A DNA stretch of 64,000 bases from Thermoanaerobaculia bacterium (GTDB lineage: Bacteria > Acidobacteriota > Thermoanaerobaculia > Multivoradales > JAIOJS01), in contig CAWJWP010000035.1 in the NCBI GenBank assembly GCA_963846495.1, positions 372,212 through 436,211 of the forward strand, written 5' to 3'. The notes below the pieces were generated by a model that was given only the letters and a program-made list of their open reading frames with translations, was not told where the DNA came from and searched no databases. This document shows, in pieces, positions 4,172 to 11,607 of the stretch. Both the position numbers and the translations under genes were made by a program. Within the stretch, counting starts at the first letter, position 1, and every line of letters begins with the position of its first letter.

Positions 4172-6547
4172 TCAGCGGACCGCCGGCAGCGCGCGCTCCC
4201 ACAGCCCGTCGCCGTGCGCGACGAGGCGCAGCAGCCGCTCCTTGCCGTAGAGCAGGAGCTGCATGCTCTCGACCGCCGGGTAGAGGCCCTCGCTCCACGG
4301 CTGCCAGCTCGCGCCGCCGTCGCGCGAGCGGTAGACGCCCCACTGGTTGGCGACGTAGAGGTCGCCGCTCGCCGCGTCGACGACGAGGTCCGCGTGCGGC
4401 ACGTCGGGCAGCGCGCCTTTCGCCGCGTCGCCGTCGAGCACCCGCCACGCCGGCGCCGCGCCGCCGCTCCACGCGCTGTCGTCGAGCGGCGCCGTCCACA
4501 CGTGCCCCGGGCCGAAGCCGCCGAAGACGAGGAAGAGGCGCTTCCCCGCTTCGTCGAGGACGATCGCCCGCGGCTGCCGGTCGCGCGGCAGCGCGTCGCC
4601 GGTGAGGTCGCGCCAGGTGAAGCCGCCGTCGGGGCTGGCGTAGACGTGCATCGCCTCGTAGCGCGGATCGGTGACGGCGACGACCTTCGCGCTCGATGAC
4701 GGCGACACCGCGAATGCCGCGATCGGGTTGCGGTCCTTGCCGAAGCCGGTCGGCTCCCAGGCCAGCGCCAGCGTGCGCACCGCGGCCTTTTGCGTCGACG
4801 AATGCGTGGGGTCCTCGTCGGCGAGCGCCGTGCGCGTCGAGCGGTAGAGCACGTTGCGCGCTGCGTAGAGCACGTCGCCGGCCGCGGACACTTCGACGGG
4901 CGCGTACCAACCCGTCGTGTCGAGGCAGTTGTCGCTGCTGTGGAACGGATCGACGTCGGGGATGAAGAGGCCGCCACCGTTGTCGTTGTCGGGCGCGTCG
5001 TACTGCTGGTCGCTCGTGACGCCGAGCCGGTAGCGCCCGAGCCGCGCGTTGAAGTGCTGGCCGACGTAGAGCAGCTTCTCGGACTGCGAGTAGGCGATGG
5101 CGCCCGCCTCGTGTCCGTAGCCGGCCACCCAGCTCCAGCCGTCGCCCTTCGTCGACGGCTGGTAGAAGTAGAAGCCCGGCCCCTGGTCCTGCGCCGTGGC
5201 CGCGACGAAGCCCGAGGCCTCGGGCGAGCTCGCCGCGGGGTAAAGCTGCACGACGTCATAGCCCTCGTTCCAAGCCTGGATCGAGCGGCCGCCATCGAGC
5301 GAGCGATAGACGCCTTGGTCGCTCGCGAAGTAGAGCCGCTCGCTCGCTCCGGGCTGTTTCTCCCCCGGATTGCCCGGCACGACGACGATGCGGTGCGTGT
5401 CGGCCATGTAGTAGAGGCCCTTCTCGTCGTTGACGATCGTCCACAGGCCGGCGCCGCTGCCGCCGTAGCTCTTGCCGCCGTCGAAGCTGCGCTGGAGCTG
5501 GGTGCCGACGATCCACAACCGATCGGGGTCGCTCGACGACACCGCTACCGCGTGCGAGTACCAGCCCTGCGAGCTGGCGTAGCTCTGCGTCGTCTGCGTC
5601 GTCCAACGCCGGCCGCCGTCGTCGGAGCGCAGCAGCCAGTTGACGGGATCGACCTTCAGGCTCTGGTACTGGCAGGCGAAAGCGCCCTGGTCGCTGCCGT
5701 ACTGCGCGTTGCCGTAGGCGAAGTGGAGCTGGTTGCCGATCGACGCGTAGACGACCGACGGCTCGCTGGGCGAGCGGCCGAGGACCGCCTTGCCTTCGAA
5801 CTTCGACGGCACGCCGTCGAGGAGCTTCTGCCAGCTCTCGCCGCCGTCCTCGGTGAGGTAGAGCCCATGGCCCGCGCTGGCTGCCGAGCCACAGGCGACG
5901 AGCAGCTCGCCCGGCCGCGCCGGGTTCGGCGACAGGCTGGTCGCCATGATGACGGGCAACGACTGCTCCCACCGGTCGGCGCCGGCCGCCGCGCCGAGAC
6001 GCGTGCGCAGCCGATAGACGCCCTCCGTCGTCGCCGCCCACACGGTGAAGTCCGCCGCCGAGTCGCCGTCCGGCACGATGGCGAGGTCCTGCACGCCGGT
6101 GCGGTCCGCCGGCTGCCAGGCGAGGCTCGGCTGCCAGGACTTGCCGCCGTCGCGGCTGGCCAGGATGCCGATGCCGTAGTTGCCGCGCGTCGTGTGGTCG
6201 TCGAGGCCGATGTCGGCCTGCCGATAGCGGTAGACCTCGCCGGTGCCGGCGAAGATCACGTTCGGGTCGCGTGGGTGGATGGCGATCGCGGCGACGCCGA
6301 GCACGCGGTGCGGTGAGGTGTCGACGCGCTGCCACTCGGCGCCCGGCTCGCGCTTCCAGAGACCGGAGCTCGCCGAGCCGGCGAAGATTCGCTCGGGGTT
6401 CGAGGGATCGACGGCGATGACGAGGGTGCGGGCGCCGAAGTCGTAGGGCCCGCGATGGACCCAGCGGTCGTCGGCGTGGAGCAGCGATGCGAACGCGAAA
6501 CTGACGAGGCCGGCGAGCAAGGCAACGGCGGTGGAGCGCTTGGGCAC
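4172..6547 (-). CDS. Secreted BNR/Asp-box repeat (sialidase/Sortilin-Vps10-like beta-propeller) protein
   Basis: Multiple Asp-box motifs are present (DGGKSWQ, DGGESWQ, DDGGRRWT, FDGGKSYG, LDGGRSIQ, PDGGFTWR, RDGGASWQ). I chose the start at GTG 6547 because an AAGGAGG RBS lies 5 nt upstream and a signal peptide follows (VPKRSTAVALLAGLVSFAFASLLHA). The longer ORF to 6754 is unlikely. Confidence 0.8.
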   Translation of the reverse strand: MPKRSTAVALLAGLVSFAFASLLHADDRWVHRGPYDFGARTLVIAVDPSNPERIFAGSASSGLWKREPGAEWQRVDTSPHRVLGVAAIAIHPRDPNVIFAGTGEVYRYRQADIGLDDHTTRGNYGIGILASRDGGKSWQPSLAWQPADRTGVQDLAIVPDGDSAADFTVWAATTEGVYRLRTRLGAAAGADRWEQSLPVIMATSLSPNPARPGELLVACGSAASAGHGLYLTEDGGESWQKLLDGVPSKFEGKAVLGRSPSEPSVVYASIGNQLHFAYGNAQYGSDQGAFACQYQSLKVDPVNWLLRSDDGGRRWTTQTTQSYASSQGWYSHAVAVSSSDPDRLWIVGTQLQRSFDGGKSYGGSGAGLWTIVNDEKGLYYMADTHRIVVVPGNPGEKQPGASERLYFASDQGVYRSLDGGRSIQAWNEGYDVVQLYPAASSPEASGFVAATAQDQGPGFYFYQPSTKGDGWSWVAGYGHEAGAIAYSQSEKLLYVGQHFNARLGRYRLGVTSDQQYDAPDNDNGGGLFIPDVDPFHSSDNCLDTTGWYAPVEVSAAGDVLYAARNVLYRSTRTALADEDPTHSSTQKAAVRTLALAWEPTGFGKDRNPIAAFAVSPSSSAKVVAVTDPRYEAMHVYASPDGGFTWRDLTGDALPRDRQPRAIVLDEAGKRLFLVFGGFGPGHVWTAPLDDSAWSGGAAPAWRVLDGDAAKGALPDVPHADLVVDAASGDLYVANQWGVYRSRDGGASWQPWSEGLYPAVESMQLLLYGKERLLRLVAHGDGLWERALPAVR

Positions 6548-6754
6548 CGTTCCCTCCTTGCGTGCGGGGCGCACGCACAGTCGAAGGTCGACGCGATGCG
6601 ATGGGTCCGTGACGAGGTGAACGATCATGGCACAGGGTGCGCTCGCCGACGGCAACGTTGTGTTAGGTTGCCCGCCGACGATCGCAGAAACGTGGCTGGT
6701 CGCGCGGGCGGCCTTCCTGAGCGCACCAGCCCTCGCCTGGAGGAGGGACGCCAC

Positions 6755-8518
6755 ATGAGCTCAGACGCACCGGCCCCGCAGCCCGCGCCTCGCCAGCCCA
6801 CCGACCTGGCCGTCGACCGCGCCGCGCTCTACGCGCTGATCCAATCGGCGGTGGACGTCGAGCTGTTCACCATCCCGCTCTACATGACGGCGCTCTACTC
6901 CATCCGCGGCACCTACCCGGCGCCGCTCGACGGCCAGAACGTCTGGCCGGGCATGCGCCCCGATCCCACCTCCACGACGCCGAGCCAACGGGCGTTCAAC
7001 GCCGTCTTCTCGGTCTACGTGCAGGAGATGCTGCACCTACAGCTCGCCGGCAACATCGCCAGCGCGATGGGGTTGCCACCCAGCCTCGACGCGCCGGTCT
7101 ACGACGGCACCTCCGTTCCCTGCATCGGCGACTTGAAGGACATGGCGGGCTTCGAGGACGTGGTGGTGAAGCTGGGGCCGCTCGACCGCAACCAGGTCCG
7201 CCTCTTCCTCGCCATCGAGAACCCGGACTGGGAGAGCTCGTCGGTGAAGCCGGCGGTGCCCTTCGCGGGATGGAGCCCGGGCCAGCCGCTGCCCGAGTTC
7301 GGCACCATCGGTCACCTCTACCAGTGCATCCGCGAGTACATGGACCTCGTCTACGTCGACGGCGGGCTCGTCACCGGCACGCTGTGGGAGAAGGTCTACG
7401 ACCCCGACTCGATCCAGATCGACCTCTTCAACTTCGAGAGCAAGACCGACTACCACCCCGATCAGGAGTACCCGACGTTCGACGTCTTCTTCCCGCTCGG
7501 CATCAGCGCGGCCGACGCGCGCAAGGTCGCCGACACGATGATCGACGCCATCACCGAGCAGGGCGAAGGGCGGGACGCCAGCAAGGGCCCGGACACCGTC
7601 GACCCGCAGTACGTGCCGTCGGAGAAGGGCGTCAGCGACGACTACAACTCCAACGACGGCGCGGTGCGTTTCTTCTGGGATCAGCAGGGACACTGGGAGC
7701 GCTTCCAGCAGGTGGCGCGCTGGCTCCCCGAGATCGAGACCTGGCCGCAATGGTGGGCGAAGCGCGGCGGCATCGTCGCCTGGCAATGGCAGGACCTCGT
7801 CGTGGCGTCGCACACCGCCGACCCGCCGACGCAGACGTTCGCCCAGCAGCGCGCCGACGCGCTCAACGATCCGCGCACCGCCGACCAGGTCAACGACGCG
7901 CTCGACCAGAGCTACAACAGCCTGCTCCAGGCGATCGAGACGAGCTGGAAGAACCCGGCCTGGCGCGACCGCAAGGGAAAGAAGATCGACGCCGACCAGC
8001 TCTTCCCGTACGCCGCCATGCAGGCGCTGTCGACGCGGGTCGCCACCGTGTGGGCGGCCAACGGCGTGCCGCGGTTCAAGAAGGTGCAGACCGGCACGCT
8101 GCCCTTCCCCGACCAGCAACCGCACGCCTGCCAGGGGCTCGACCCCGACCCGAAGAGCGGCGTGTGGGGCGTCAACACCTGCGCCAACGCGGTGATCCAC
8201 ACCTGCTCGCAGGCCAACAGCTGCACGCACCAGGGCGGCTGCGGCTACCCGCACGAGCCCGACGGCTTCCCCAGCGTCAACACCGACAAGGGCGGCGGCG
8301 GCGGGTGCGGCGCGCCGATCCCGGTGGCGCAGGTGTTCAACGGTCCCGCCGGCACCGTCTGGACGTACCAGCCGCAAGGCGGCAAGCAAATCCCGATCGC
8401 GGCCGGCGCCGAGGTCTGGGAGACCGCGTGGCAGCTCTTCCAGGCCATCTACCCGGACGCGGCGCAGGCGACGCCGCCGCCACCCACCAACCTGCGGCTG
8501 GTGCTGCCGCCGAGCTAG
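6755..8518 (+). CDS. Ferritin-like domain protein (PF12902-like) with a C-terminal six-Cys bufferin-like module
   Basis: ATG 6755 is preceded by GGAGGAGGG. The N-terminal four-helix-bundle signatures are VDVELFTIPLYMTALYSI and VQEMLHLQLAGNI (ExxH). The C-terminal segment is ACQG..GVNTCANAVIHTCSQANSCTHQGGCGY..GGGGGCG. No signal peptide is evident. Confidence 0.8.
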   Translation: MSSDAPAPQPAPRQPTDLAVDRAALYALIQSAVDVELFTIPLYMTALYSIRGTYPAPLDGQNVWPGMRPDPTSTTPSQRAFNAVFSVYVQEMLHLQLAGNIASAMGLPPSLDAPVYDGTSVPCIGDLKDMAGFEDVVVKLGPLDRNQVRLFLAIENPDWESSSVKPAVPFAGWSPGQPLPEFGTIGHLYQCIREYMDLVYVDGGLVTGTLWEKVYDPDSIQIDLFNFESKTDYHPDQEYPTFDVFFPLGISAADARKVADTMIDAITEQGEGRDASKGPDTVDPQYVPSEKGVSDDYNSNDGAVRFFWDQQGHWERFQQVARWLPEIETWPQWWAKRGGIVAWQWQDLVVASHTADPPTQTFAQQRADALNDPRTADQVNDALDQSYNSLLQAIETSWKNPAWRDRKGKKIDADQLFPYAAMQALSTRVATVWAANGVPRFKKVQTGTLPFPDQQPHACQGLDPDPKSGVWGVNTCANAVIHTCSQANSCTHQGGCGYPHEPDGFPSVNTDKGGGGGCGAPIPVAQVFNGPAGTVWTYQPQGGKQIPIAAGAEVWETAWQLFQAIYPDAAQATPPPPTNLRLVLPPS

Positions 8519-8538
8519 GGGTCGTGGATGCGCAGCAT

Positions 8539-8610
8539 CGAAATCGCTTCGCTGCGCTCGCGATGACGGAAGGAAGTCATCGCGAGGAGCGCAGCGACGA
8601 AGGGATCTCG
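8539..8610. repeat. REP-like imperfect palindromic element (copy 1)
   Basis: The left arm is cgaaatcgcttcgctgcgctcgcgatgac, the loop is ggaaggaa, and the right arm is gtcatcgcgaggagcgcagcgacgaagggatctcg. The right arm recurs at 22917-22989 and 36266-36300. Confidence 0.6.
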
Positions 8611-9543
8611 ACGCCGCCGTATCGCCTCGGCCTGCCCGACCTCGGCTTCGGGGTCGGGCTGCGCGCCGTCCACTTCGACCACATCCTCGCCCACTGGCCG
8701 GCGGTGGACTGGTTCGAGGTCATCTCGGAGAACTACGTCGACTCGCGCGGCCGGCCGCGCTACGTGCTCGACCGCATCGCCGAGCGCTACCCGGTCGTCA
8801 TGCACGGCGTCTCGCTGTCGATCGGCAGCAGCGATCCGCTCGACTTCGAGTACCTGGGCAAGCTCAAGGCGCTGGCGCGCGCCATCCGGCCGGCGTGGGT
8901 CTCCGACCACCTCTGCTGGACCGGCGTGCTCGGCCGCAACACCCACGATCTGCTGCCGATGCCGCTCGACGCCGCCTCGCTGCGCCACGTGGTCGGGCGC
9001 ATCCGCACCGTGCAGGACTTCCTCGAGCGGCCGCTGGTGCTGGAGAACCCCAGCACCTACGTCACCTTCACCGCCGACACCATGGCGGAGTGGGAGTTCC
9101 TCGCCGCGATGGCCGAGGAGGCCGACTGCGGGCTGCTGCTCGACGTCAACAACGTCTACGTGTCGAGCAAGAACCACGGCTTCGACCCCGAAGCGTTCGT
9201 CGCCGCGGTGCCCGCCGAGCGCATCGTGCAATTCCACCTCGCCGGGCACACCAACTGCGGCACTCATCTCATCGATACCCACGACGGCGAGGTGATCGAC
9301 CGCGTCTGGGAGCTCTACCGGCTCGCCTACGGACGCACGCGCGGCGTCTCGACGCTGCTCGAGTGGGACGCGCGGATTCCGCCGTTCGACGTGCTGCACG
9401 CCGAGGTGCTGAAGGCGAAGGCGTGGGCGCGGGGTGACGAGAGCGCGGCGGGAAGAGCGGCGCGCGAGGGCGTCGACACGGCGACGGCGACAGGCTTCGC
9501 GCTTTCCAACCCGCCTCATCTGGTGGCGCCGGAGCTCGAGTGA
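8563..9543 (+). CDS. DUF692-family multinuclear non-heme iron oxidase (MNIO; MbnB/BufB/HvfB-like)
   Basis: It shows strong UPF0276/DUF692 hallmarks (LGFGVGLRAVHF, WFEVISENY, VMHGVSLSIGS, VSDHLCWTG, LVLENPSTY, LLLDVNNVYVS, VQFHLAGH, LLEWD). The start is uncertain: ATG 8563 lies inside the REP element and I saw no obvious start codon between the REP element and the conserved LGFGVG core. Confidence 0.85.
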   Translation: MTEGSHREERSDEGISTPPYRLGLPDLGFGVGLRAVHFDHILAHWPAVDWFEVISENYVDSRGRPRYVLDRIAERYPVVMHGVSLSIGSSDPLDFEYLGKLKALARAIRPAWVSDHLCWTGVLGRNTHDLLPMPLDAASLRHVVGRIRTVQDFLERPLVLENPSTYVTFTADTMAEWEFLAAMAEEADCGLLLDVNNVYVSSKNHGFDPEAFVAAVPAERIVQFHLAGHTNCGTHLIDTHDGEVIDRVWELYRLAYGRTRGVSTLLEWDARIPPFDVLHAEVLKAKAWARGDESAAGRAAREGVDTATATGFALSNPPHLVAPELE

Positions 9544-10433
9544 GCTCGCCGCCGTCTGCTGACTCCGCACGCGCTCGCGGCGCGAGCGCGTGCCCGCCTG
9601 AGCTGGCGCGGCTGCAACGGTGGCTACAAGCGGCGATCGTCGAGCCTGCGGCGGCGGCCAAGACGTCGACCGTGGTGGAGGCCGTGGAGGACGTCGTGAC
9701 GGCGTCGCCCACGCAATCCGCGGCGGAGCGCCTGGCGATCTACCAGCATTCCTACCTGGCGCGGCTCCTGGAGTGCCTGCGTGCCGTCTTTCCGGCGCTG
9801 CGCCACGCCCTCGGCGAGCCGCTCTTCGACCGCTTCGCCGCCGACTACCTCGTCCGCCACCCGCCGGCGAGCTACACGCTGGCGATGCTCGCGGTGCACT
9901 TTCCGCACTACCTGACGTCGACGCGGCCCGACGCCGAGCTGCCCGCCGAAGAGCGCGCGCCGTGGGCCGACTTCCTCGTCGACCTCGCCACCCTCGAGCT
10001 CGCTTTCCAGGAGGTCTACGACGGCGAGGGGCTCGAGGACCAACCGCCGCCGCCCGTCGACGAGGTCGTCGCCCTGCCACCGGCGGAGCTGCTCGCCGTC
10101 CGCTTCGCAGCCGCGCCATCGCTGCGCCTCTTCGCGTTTGGCTCCCCCGTGCACGAGTACCTCACAGCGGCGAGGCGCGGCGAGCATCCGGCGCTACCGC
10201 AGCCCCGGCCGACGGCGCTCGCCGTCGCGCGGCGCGACTGGCGCGTGCGCTTCCACGCGCTCTTCCCGCAGCAGCACGCGCTGCTCTCGGCGCTCGCCTC
10301 CGGCCAAACGCTCGGCGAAGGCGTCGCCGCCGCGTCGCTGCCGCCGTGGGACGCGATCGATCCGGCCGTCCTCCGCGGCTGGCTGCGCGGCTGGATGGAG
10401 GAGCGCTTCTTCGCGCGCGTCGAGCGCGCCTAG
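9540..10433 (+). CDS. DUF2063-family protein (MNIO partner; BufC/HvfC-like putative DNA-binding-domain protein)
   Basis: The GTG start overlaps the DUF692 stop (GTGA). DUF2063-like segments include LQRWLQAAI, AERLAIYQHSYLARLLECLRAVFPAL and FDRFAADYLVRHPP. Confidence 0.8.
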   Translation: MSSPPSADSARARGASACPPELARLQRWLQAAIVEPAAAAKTSTVVEAVEDVVTASPTQSAAERLAIYQHSYLARLLECLRAVFPALRHALGEPLFDRFAADYLVRHPPASYTLAMLAVHFPHYLTSTRPDAELPAEERAPWADFLVDLATLELAFQEVYDGEGLEDQPPPPVDEVVALPPAELLAVRFAAAPSLRLFAFGSPVHEYLTAARRGEHPALPQPRPTALAVARRDWRVRFHALFPQQHALLSALASGQTLGEGVAAASLPPWDAIDPAVLRGWLRGWMEERFFARVERA

Positions 10434-11607
10434 TGGACGACCGCGGGGTGGATCACCGCGCCGCAGCGGCCGCTGCCGGCGATCGGGATGCGCTCGCCCG
10501 GCCGCAGCTGCCGTGCTCCGGGGTGCACCTTCTCGCGCTGCCAGCGCTGCCACTCGGCGAGGTAGTCGCAGGTGCACTGCCGGCCGTTGGCGACGAGCCC
10601 GTCCTTCTGCGCCGGCGTCAGGTCGAAGTCGAGCGTCGAGATGCCGCAGTCGTCGAGGACCGCCGTGCGCTCGAGGTCGGGCGGGTCGGTCGCCAGCGCG
10701 TCGACCTGCACGGCGAGCACCGATTCGATGAGCGCGTCGGAGTACTGCACGAGATTGTCGACCGGCCGGCCCGACGGCGGCAGGCCGGTGTTCTCGAGCA
10801 CGAAGCCGAGCGTCGCCGGATTGGTGCCCTCCTTCGTGTCGAAGGCGTCGATCGGGTAGTTGCGCAGCACGCCGCCGTCGACGTAGACGTCGCTGCCTTG
10901 GCGGATCGACGCGAAGAAGAGCGGGAACGATCCCGACATGCGCGCCGCCAGCGCCACCTCGAACTCGGGGCTCTTCTCCAGCGACAGCTCGCGCGCCTTG
11001 CGGCGGTTGAGGTCGGTGGTGAAGACGTGGAGCTTGCGCATCCCGAGCCGTTCGAGGTCGGCGAAGGTCGAGCGCGGATGTTGCCGGTCTTGGCGGCGAC
11101 GAGGCAGCGCATGAGGCCGAGGTAGTAGTCGCCCTTGTAATAGCCGTAGCGGCGCAGCAGCCGCAGCAGGCCGCCGAAGCGGCCGTCCTCGAACTTCGAG
11201 AAGTCGAGGTTGTAGAGCAGCGACTTCACCTCCGCCGGCGAGTAGCGCAGCGCCACCAGCGTGGCGGTGATGGCTCCTGCCGAGGTGCCGGCGACGTGGT
11301 CGACCTGGGGCAGGATCTCCTGCTGCTCGAGCACTTCGAGCGCGCCGCCGTAGGCGATGCCTTTGACGCCGCCGCCTTCGAAGACGACGTTGGTGAAGGG
11401 GTACTTGACCGGCGCCGGGCACGTCGGCGCCCGCGTCGGGCAGGTTGGCGCTGGCGTGTTCGTCGCGGTGGCCGGCACGCCCTGGGCGACGAGCTTCGCC
11501 ACCGTCGGGCAGGAGATCGGCATGCTCGAGCAGCCGGCCGTTGCGGCCGCAGCGGCGACGGCGACGAGCAGCAGCGGCAGCCGGTGCCCGCGCAAGCGGA
11601 CGCTCAC
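10430..11607 (-). CDS. Patatin-like phospholipase lipoprotein (frameshifted near 11085)
   Basis: It has a signal peptide with a lipobox (LLLVAVAAAAATAGC). Patatin motifs are GGGVKGIAYGG, GTSAG (GxSxG) and, in the downstream frame, YVDGGVLRNYP (DGG). The N-terminal part sits in the frame of ORF 10618..12510 and the C-terminal part in ORF 10430..11422, a net -1 shift around ..AAKTGNI|STFADLERLG... The GTG start overlaps the upstream stop (GTGA). Its stop shares a CTAG with the convergent DUF2063 stop. Confidence 0.75.

Follow-up and report, generated by a model that had tools for sequence, protein, structure and literature searches.

What does a peptide-modifying oxidase act on when the gene in front of it encodes a large folded protein? 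Multinuclear non-heme iron oxidases (MNIOs; DUF692) with DUF2063 partners of PME-type 1 (PME1) are currently seen, through the bufferins, oxazolins and captophorins, as makers of small Sec-exported copper-binding peptides. The question arises from a 64-kb stretch of DNA from a Thermoanaerobaculia bacterium (contig CAWJWP010000035.1, positions 372,212 to 436,211; the window from here on), in which an MNIO gene and a DUF2063 gene follow a gene for a ferritin-like protein. An earlier note on this DNA proposed either a protein-sized MNIO substrate or a ferritin-like accessory fused to a precursor. We find that the three genes form an obligate cassette, and that the C-terminal domain of the ferritin-like protein is homologous to proteins encoded alone in the precursor position in front of MNIO genes. 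We consider it moderately probable that the pair acts on the ferritin-like protein itself, whose Cys residues would be converted in the cytoplasm to 5-thiooxazoles that make up a protein-anchored metal site.

A three-gene cassette in six phyla

The three genes lie on the forward strand, exactly where the earlier note had placed three co-directional open reading frames (ORFs). Gene 1 (6755..8518) encodes a ferritin-like protein with a Cys-rich C-terminal domain, the putative substrate, which has no signal peptide; its product is 587 amino acids (aa) plus the stop, so that the ORF first described as 588 aa keeps its ends and loses one residue. Gene 2 (8563..9543) encodes a BufB-type MNIO, and gene 3 (9540..10433) a BufC/HvfC-like DUF2063 partner of PME-type 1. 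Genes 1 and 2 are only 45 nucleotides (nt) apart. The TGA stop of gene 2 and the GTG start of gene 3 overlap as GTGA, through which gene 3 is translationally coupled to gene 2, as had been read before.

The same arrangement recurs in other genomes. A search with gene 1 returns 521 database clusters at E<=1e-5, with full-length homologues of about 550-690 aa. From a scan of one genome per GTDB species, with 322 relatives, we kept 80 loci whose ferritin-like proteins are 31-68 % identical to that of the window, and we located their MNIO and DUF2063 neighbours by tblastn. These loci come from more than 70 species of Acidobacteriota, Pseudomonadota (Alpha-, Beta- and Gammaproteobacteria), Actinomycetota, Myxococcota, Bacteroidota and Planctomycetota; the closest relatives are other Thermoanaerobaculia, at 68 % identity. 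An MNIO gene is directly downstream of the ferritin-like gene in 78 of the 80 loci, and in the other two the contig ends within or just after the ferritin-like gene. Because the same order is found in every assessable related locus (78/78), the arrangement is far beyond chance. A DUF2063 gene comes next in 76 of the 80, and the gap between the ferritin-like and MNIO genes narrows to 3-20 nt in related loci. The three genes form an obligate cassette.

Nothing else is conserved with them. An all-against-all clustering of every ORF of at least 70 aa within 8 kb on either side, in the 80 loci, yields three conserved families, the ferritin-like protein, the MNIO and the DUF2063 protein; all other recurrent clusters are alternative-frame shadows of these three genes. 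No DoxX, sigma/anti-sigma, protease or exporter/transporter gene is conserved in those regions.

The cassette also varies. Locus L036 (Dyella acidisoli) has the ferritin-like and MNIO genes and ample flanking sequence, and no DUF2063 match by tblastn at E 1e-5; its partner may be divergent or missing. Locus L052 (Janthinobacterium sp. AD80) likewise has no DUF2063 match, but only about 850 nt follow its MNIO gene, so that the locus may be truncated. Undibacterium species each have one of two clearly different subfamilies of the ferritin-like gene (L003-L008 versus L024-L078, loci of Undibacterium and related genera), the first about 50 % identical to the window protein and with a short 6-Cys tail, the second about 32 % identical and with a long tail of 9-12 Cys, which points to an old divergence or to horizontal transfer of the cassette. 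In protein P0021, which has 828 aa and comes from a genome of 4.7 Mb, a LamG-like domain (PF13385) of about 250 aa is added at the N-terminal side of the ferritin-like domain, and tail-bearing proteins of up to 760-1000 aa (for example P0185 and P0164) indicate that further fusions exist.

The oxidase and its partner

Gene 2 matches PF05114 (MbnB_TglH_ChrH) with E 2e-107, and reaches 355.7 bits with the NCBIfam MNIO_BufB equivalog NF050167 (cut-off 310). It falls well short of the equivalog cut-offs for HvfB (254.7 bits vs 360), MbnB (47.2 vs 325), ApyH and ChrH, and its best match in the PDB is the HvfB-like 3bww (E 2.3e-50). Gene 3 matches PF09836 (DUF2063) with E 4.5e-20 and 72.2 bits, against a gathering threshold (GA) of 27.2; its match to NGO1945_C, a domain like the recognition elements of RiPPs (peptides made by the ribosome and modified after translation), has 24.1 bits (GA 27), and that to HvfC (NF050145) has 50.8 bits, below the cut-off of 142. 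Together with the PF12902 match of gene 1 (E 2.5e-29), these searches return all of the DUF692, DUF2063 and PF12902 assignments that the earlier note had wanted checked.

The MNIO metal-ligand motifs (H, H, E, D/N, H, D-x-H and E-x-D) are kept in the window enzyme and in the 77 MNIOs linked to ferritin-like genes elsewhere. The last of these motifs is E-W-D in all 77, followed by A (69 cases), S (6) or G (2); the window enzyme has E-W-D-A. BufB2 enzymes from Legionella and Asticcacaulis plasmids have E-R-D-D, and BufB1 has E-R-D-G, so that the linked MNIOs do not carry the Asp after the catalytic Asp that is typical of BufB2 enzymes of the Cys-Lys type. The residue after the catalytic Asp has been described as a determinant of which residues are allowed beside the target Cys; enzymes of the Lys-Cys kind have Phe there, and those of the Cys-Lys/BufB2 kind have Asp (Gadgil et al., PMC13097082). 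As judged from these sequences, the linked MNIOs form a co-adapted subfamily with an active-site motif of its own.

What reaction would such an enzyme perform? MNIO-PME1 pairs are reported to form heterodimers and to install 5-thiooxazoles on Cys broadly, and those characterised so far have all given 5-thiooxazoles, the revised oxazolin structure included (PMC13097082); in Buf2, four central Cys lose 4 Da each (PMC11626156). The MNIO could instead act on the tail and install a cross-link, an oxazolone-thioamide or a modification on residues other than Cys. The MNIO superfamily does perform many reactions (PMC12452194), the invariant Trp of E-W-D takes the place of the Arg of BufB1 and BufB2, and the sequences flanking the tail Cys are unusual. 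We nevertheless regard a different chemistry as very improbable, given the uniform record of characterised pairs, the HvfB-like structure that best matches gene 2, and a score for gene 2 that passes the cut-off of the BufB equivalog and stays far under the ones for ApyH, MbnB and ChrH.

The ferritin-like protein and its Cys-rich tail

The only Pfam match of gene 1 is the PF12902 ferritin-like domain (aa 29-319, 6839..7711), at 103.2 bits against a GA of 22.3, in agreement with the N-terminal ferritin-like bundle first proposed. Classical ferritins, bacterioferritins and Dps have subunits of about 160-180 aa that build cages of 24 or 12 copies, and are unlike gene 1, which in Pfam matches PF12902 alone. 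We built an AlphaFold2 model of gene 1 on 50 homologues, in which the whole 587 aa form one compact unit (predicted local distance difference test, pLDDT, 88.9; predicted template modelling score, pTM, 0.92). Residues 10-450 make up a helical body. Beyond the PF12902 domain, this body includes a helical extension that packs on the ferritin-like bundle (aa 320-454, 7712..8116), with helices at 330-434, mostly at pLDDT >90, and conserved W398, F417, M422, R428 and W433. E36, E91-x-x-H94, E155, E271 and H313 are invariant among the 50 homologues; E36, E91, H94, E155, E271 and H313 are candidate di-metal ligands, an inventory of residues that fits a di-metal carboxylate site.

The only relative with a solved structure is 3hl1 (Caulobacter vibrioides CC_0557; sequence E 3.6e-23), to which the model also matches by Foldseek with E 3.6e-11 and a template modelling score of 0.72; matches to Mn catalase and mini-bacterioferritin are weak (probability 0.1-0.2). 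CC_0557 shares with gene 1 the fold and the conserved motifs ELWTIPYY, QEMLH, IEYPE and DQGEG. It differs in having 317 aa and no Cys-rich tail, and 3hl1 is a structural-genomics entry for a "ferritin like protein", whose PDB title gives no function.

The protein has no transmembrane segment and no signal peptide: in 117 family members, the N-terminus extends a median of 34 aa ahead of helix 1 and holds no hydrophobic stretch. The description of a cytoplasmic-looking protein holds for the family.

Gene 1 has eight Cys, and six of these (C459, C476, C484, C490, C496 and C518) are in the tail, at about aa 455-587. C459, C484, C490, C496 and C518 are invariant and C476 is found in 49 of the 50 homologues, which bears out the six-Cys C-terminal tail of the earlier note. 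They lie in a BufA2-like Cys-rich core (aa 455-523, 8117..8323), where they are the putative MNIO targets, with the pattern H457-A-C459-Q-G...C476-A...H482-T-C484...N488-S-C490...Q-G-G-C496-G...G-G-C518-G-A-P-I. The flanking residues H457, Q460, H482, N488, G494, G495, G497, G516, G517, P521 and I522 are invariant as well. In the model, residues 450-520 have no regular secondary structure (pLDDT 57-73). The tail gives no match in Pfam or NCBIfam at E<=10.

After the core comes a C-terminal beta-hairpin and helix (with V554 and A558) that ends in N-L-R-L-V-L-P-P-S (8324..8515). Residues 520-587 are modelled as two strands and a helix at pLDDT 86-90; therefore, the chain returns to pack on the body. 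R581, P585 and P586 are invariant in the 50 homologues, and about 118 of 120 members end (aa 582-587, positions 8498-8515) in [LVF]-[LFI]-P-P-S or -P-P-S-T. This PPS/PPST terminus fits no known sorting signal. The hairpin and helix with their conserved end may be a docking or recognition element, and the terminus itself could be a strand with such a role. A role of the conserved C-terminus in targeting an encapsulin cargo was considered and rejected, as no shell gene or other gene is conserved nearby.

Could the tail work together with the ferritin-like domain? The modified tail Cys could be a ligand set or redox cofactor for the di-metal site and not a metal buffer, delivering or tuning the metal or belonging to the active site, and the cassette would then be an enzyme with its dedicated maturation machinery. 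The compact model, with the segment after the core packing back on the body, is consistent with this, as are the invariance of the candidate di-metal ligands together with the tail Cys, the stability of the fusion across six phyla, and the lack of conserved copper-stress genes (sigma/anti-sigma, DoxX, exporters), unlike in buf1 clusters (PMC12452194). PF12902, however, has no characterised activity, its only solved member being the structural-genomics entry 3hl1, and the tail domain exists alone, with no adjacent ferritin-like gene, in two of the loci described below (L084 and L087), because of which we take the tail to have a function independent of the ferritin-like domain. We consider a cofactor of this kind unlikely. 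In a related version, the MNIO/DUF2063 pair would have been recruited as a maturation system dedicated to an intracellular metalloprotein, whose tail thiooxazole-type ligands would stay within the folded protein and work with the di-metal centre in a protein-derived cofactor; we hold this as a tentative possibility.

Relatives of the tail in the precursor position

We searched 1.84 billion representative proteins with a profile built from 16 tails and obtained 294 matches, for the most part C-termini of other members of the fusion family. Set apart from these are stand-alone proteins of 120-230 aa in which the motif comes right at the start (for example MAILELHACQGLNAC...; P0208, P0211 and P0223 are among these proteins), with no signal peptide and at least eight Cys. 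Where the context is available, their genes are directly upstream of MNIO genes. In L081 and L082, the stand-alone gene precedes an MNIO 69 % identical to the window MNIO; in L084, it precedes an MNIO that runs into the end of the contig. The L087 contig, of 281 kb, has two tandem stand-alone copies ahead of an MNIO 66 % identical to that of the window, followed by a Pfam-positive DUF2063 protein 42 % identical to the gene 3 product. In L084 and L087, the stand-alone genes have no ferritin-like gene next to them.

The stand-alone proteins resemble the tail over about 100 residues, in the Cys core, the G-G-C-G-x-P-I motif and a VW..AR..F helix, and some members also end in ...LPPT or ...LRPT. 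They differ from gene 1 in having no ferritin-like domain and in occurring sometimes as tandem copies; they also keep the Cys of a G-L-N-x-C motif that the fused tails have lost.

Profile comparisons connect both forms to BufA2. Aligned by hhalign as a single sequence with two BufA2 proteins, the tail gives weak matches (48 % and 16 %), for which reason we built family profiles, the BufA2 profile being seeded with two genuine BufA2 proteins, encoded on Legionella and Asticcacaulis plasmids, and their database homologues. The tail aligns with the stand-alone family at 99.9 % probability (E 1.1e-31, 98 columns), the stand-alone family with BufA2 at 96.2 % (E 2e-9) across the Cys I-V motif, and the tail with BufA2 at 79.5 % (E 1.5e-5) over the H-x-C-x-G-x-N-x-C-x-x-Q-G segment. 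From these comparisons we take the tail to be a diverged and extended relative of the BufA2 core, and gene 1 to join a ferritin-like domain to a substrate domain that is distantly BufA2-like. By curated threshold the tail is not a BufA2 family member: with NF050166 (cut-off 60 bits), the two seed BufA2 proteins score 80 and 100 bits and the stand-alone relatives 12-29 bits, and the tail has no match at E<=10. Among PDB sequences, the stand-alone profile finds no more than a chance match (E 1.2).

Both readings of the earlier note, the protein-sized substrate and the ferritin-like protein fused to a precursor, hold. The second is the more precise, because the tail is a separable domain that stands alone at the precursor position before MNIO-DUF2063 pairs.

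The stand-alone proteins may correspond to adjamnio-I (Antoine et al. 2025), to which we liken them by description only: the two agree in length, in the number of Cys and in having no signal peptide (PMC12452194). adjamnio-I is reported with PME-type 2 partners (PMC12452194), in contrast to the PME1 partner of the L087 stand-alone genes. In L087 (3051-10544), the two stand-alone genes with their MNIO and PME1 genes have, to either side, a small gene (85 and 79 aa) and a gene for a large secreted protein (632 and 550 aa) with no Pfam match and a C-terminal C-x-x-C-H, suggestive of haem c; the stand-alone form thus seems to lie in a conserved neighbourhood of larger extent. In P0257 (159 aa), a stand-alone Cys-rich N-terminus is joined to the C-terminal part of an MNIO (HVIDTHD, LLEWDDRIP), which shows an E-W-D-D variant of the MNIO motif; this protein is probably a frameshift or an assembly artefact across adjacent genes.

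No separate precursor found in the window or beside the cassettes

The earlier note had found no small Cys-rich ORF nearby, and had named a missed canonical precursor gene as a discovery that would speak against it. We looked for one and found none. No ORF of at least 40 aa around the cassette is a small precursor, and a six-frame scan of the 64-kb window finds no HxCxGxNxC, CxGxNxC, EGKCG or GxNDC motif; its only QGGCG is the one inside the tail of gene 1. In the 80 loci, the clustering described above adds no further conserved ORF of at least 70 aa; below that size, only the motif scan and the tight spacing of the genes speak against a conserved ORF.

These searches bear on a second explanation, in which the ferritin-like protein is an accessory enzyme (a di-iron oxidase, an iron donor or a peroxide scavenger), the true substrate is encoded elsewhere, and the Cys-rich tail is a structural Zn or Fe-S element or a mere docking module. 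There is some precedent, since certain genes preceding MNIOs, adjamnio-II and -III, are likelier enzymes than precursors (PMC12452194); in addition, one MNIO-PME1 pair may serve several unlinked precursors, and the tail passes no precursor-family threshold. Set against this are the absence of another conserved ORF in the 80 loci and of a Buf-like motif elsewhere in the window, the homology of the tail (E 1e-31) to stand-alone proteins that occupy the precursor slot and are themselves homologues of the BufA2 core, and an MNIO specificity motif that has diverged in step with the ferritin-like partner. We regard an accessory role as quite improbable.

Proposed modification of the ferritin-like protein

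We return to the ferritin-like protein as the substrate. Its gene stands where bufA stands in the bufABC gene order (PMC12452194). In the pathway that we propose, a relative of the BufA2 cores would have been joined to a PF12902 ferritin-like protein, with loss of the Sec signal peptide. The DUF2063 partner would dock the tail in the cytoplasm, the docking element being the VW..AW..F helix, the C-terminal LRLVLPPS strand, or both; fused and stand-alone proteins alike have a conserved VW..A[WR]..F helix and a C-terminal L-x-L-x-x-P-P-S/T strand. The iron-dependent MNIO would then oxidise several of the six tail Cys by four electrons each, giving 5-thiooxazoles (-4 Da each). We propose thiooxazoles because BufB/BufC, HvfB/HvfC and FonB/FonC, of the same class, perform that reaction. 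The product would be a full-length cytoplasmic protein in which a thiooxazole site, binding a soft metal that is most likely copper, is tethered to a ferritin-like bundle that probably holds a di-metal centre. It would stay full-length and intracellular, because it lacks a signal peptide and the cassette has no conserved protease, exporter or DoxX. We infer the chemistry, the metal and a physiological role in intracellular metal buffering or handling.

Several points weigh against this proposal. All of its chemistry is by analogy, and we know of no precedent for cytoplasmic copper buffering by thiooxazoles. The Cys-rich core, modelled at pLDDT 57-73, could just as well be a knuckle that holds Zn or Fe-S for structural reasons. 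The relation of the tail to BufA2 is transitive, the direct match covers only 15 columns, and the tail stays below every BufA2, DUF2282 and other family threshold. The tail Cys mostly come without the Cys-Lys dyads of BufA2, the residues that follow the six being Q, A, variable (A/S/G/R), variable (K/A/H), G and G/A. Finally, PME-type 1 partners go with precursors that bear a signal peptide, and for Buf1 the signal peptide has been proposed to be part of the recognition sequence (PMC12452194); such recognition cannot apply to gene 1 because it has no signal peptide.

Relation to known systems

Among the closest known systems is BufA2-BufB2-BufC2 of Caulobacter vibrioides (BUF_6/12Cys; the 'Cys-Lys' captophorins), which has the same order of substrate, MNIO and DUF2063 protein and no DoxX. 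The Buf2 system and the cassette share a BufB-equivalog MNIO, a DUF2063-positive partner and six conserved Cys, and BufA2 and the tail have a common core, H-x-C-x-G...C-A...H-x-C-x-G-x-N-x-C-x-x-x-G. The full six/twelve-Cys motif of BufA2 is C-x-G-x-N-x-C-K-G...C...C-K-G-x-N-x-C-K-G...C, against which the tail, with its six conserved Cys, is missing Cys II, has two extra Cys in G-G-C-G and few Cys-Lys dyads, and carries the additional conserved C-terminal helix and PPS terminus, and its linked MNIO has E-W-D-A and not the E-R-D-D of BufB2. At the level of the whole protein, gene 1 has 587 aa against about 90 for BufA2 and no Sec signal peptide, and its Cys domain is C-terminal to a ferritin-like protein. 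The methanobactin system (MbnA/MbnB/MbnC) is unlike the cassette in that gene 2 scores 47.2 bits with the MbnB equivalog, where 325 are required, and the partner is a DUF2063 protein and not MbnC.

Bufferin domains have been found fused to other domains before, as Buf1|Cytochrom_C|FGE-sulfatase, MerC|Buf1, MerC|Buf2 and Buf_EGKCG|EF-hand_5 (PMC12452194). Like gene 1, these fusions combine a Cys domain with a metal-related domain, and they imply that MNIOs modify proteins too (PMC12452194). Unlike gene 1, they are rare, exported or membrane-anchored, and have the bufferin domain in the periplasm; in gene 1 the partner is PF12902, and the fusion is the rule in a family of 322 species representatives. 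With protein substrates and bufferin fusions already proposed, the cassette is not categorically new.

The published MNIO substrate families are Buf1, Buf2, Buf_EGKCG, CxxxxC, TIGR04222 and several "adjamnio" families (PMC12452194). Neither ferritin nor PF12902 is mentioned in the text and supplements of that study or in the captophorin paper and its supplement. A search of open-access papers and bioRxiv found no description of an MNIO/DUF692 enzyme with a ferritin-like partner, in agreement with the earlier note, which knew of no account of this architecture; the term 'ferritin-like' in a Caulobacter copper-stress transcriptome paper is merely in the title of a reference.

Boundaries of the cassette and upstream sequences

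Gene 1 could also be read from an in-frame ATG at 6455, which would give a longer ORF. We place the start at 6755 because of the spacing of a ribosome-binding site, GGAGGAGGG (6739..6747, forward strand, read from the sequence), 7 nt 5' of the ATG at 6755, and because of the start positions of homologues, which begin about 34 aa ahead of the VELFTIP motif at the first conserved helix. On the reverse strand, the cassette is flanked by a divergent gene for a BNR/Asp-box sortilin-like protein of 860 aa with a probable signal peptide (4172-6754) and by a convergent gene for a patatin-like phospholipase (10430-11422). Because these neighbours are divergent or convergent, and unrelated, the operon consists of exactly three genes; neither neighbour is conserved beside the cassette in other genomes. 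The G+C content of the window is about 70 %. We find no sigma-70-type promoter for the cassette and no terminators beyond chance. Rfam and tRNA scans of the window return nothing relevant, a single tRNA-Leu being far from the cassette.

The upstream regions of 77 loci contain no Fur-box-like or CueR-like matches. In seven Caulobacter loci (L012, L014-L016, L020, L035 and L070), a conserved palindrome, ATCAAT-N7-ATTGAT, is followed by GCAACCTAAG, about 60-150 nt upstream of the ferritin-like gene. The two are a possible operator and promoter; the palindrome matches none of the Fur-box or CueR-type patterns tried.

Significance

An enzyme class associated with small exported peptides is here coupled, tightly and widely, to a folded protein of about 600 aa that has no signal peptide, in at least six phyla. 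The cassette and the stand-alone family of L087 are exceptions to the published correlation between PME-type 1 partners and signal peptides (PMC12452194). With that link broken, a different recognition element must exist. The cassette is also the first functional context for the uncharacterised PF12902 family, including PDB 3hl1. Should the thiooxazoles work with the di-metal centre, the outcome would be a protein-derived cofactor and not a secreted RiPP metallophore; it would be the first case of a thiooxazole site that is cytoplasmic and anchored in a protein, and a first clue to the function of PF12902. If the ferritin-like protein is indeed the substrate, thiooxazole chemistry would extend from RiPPs to the modification of intracellular proteins.

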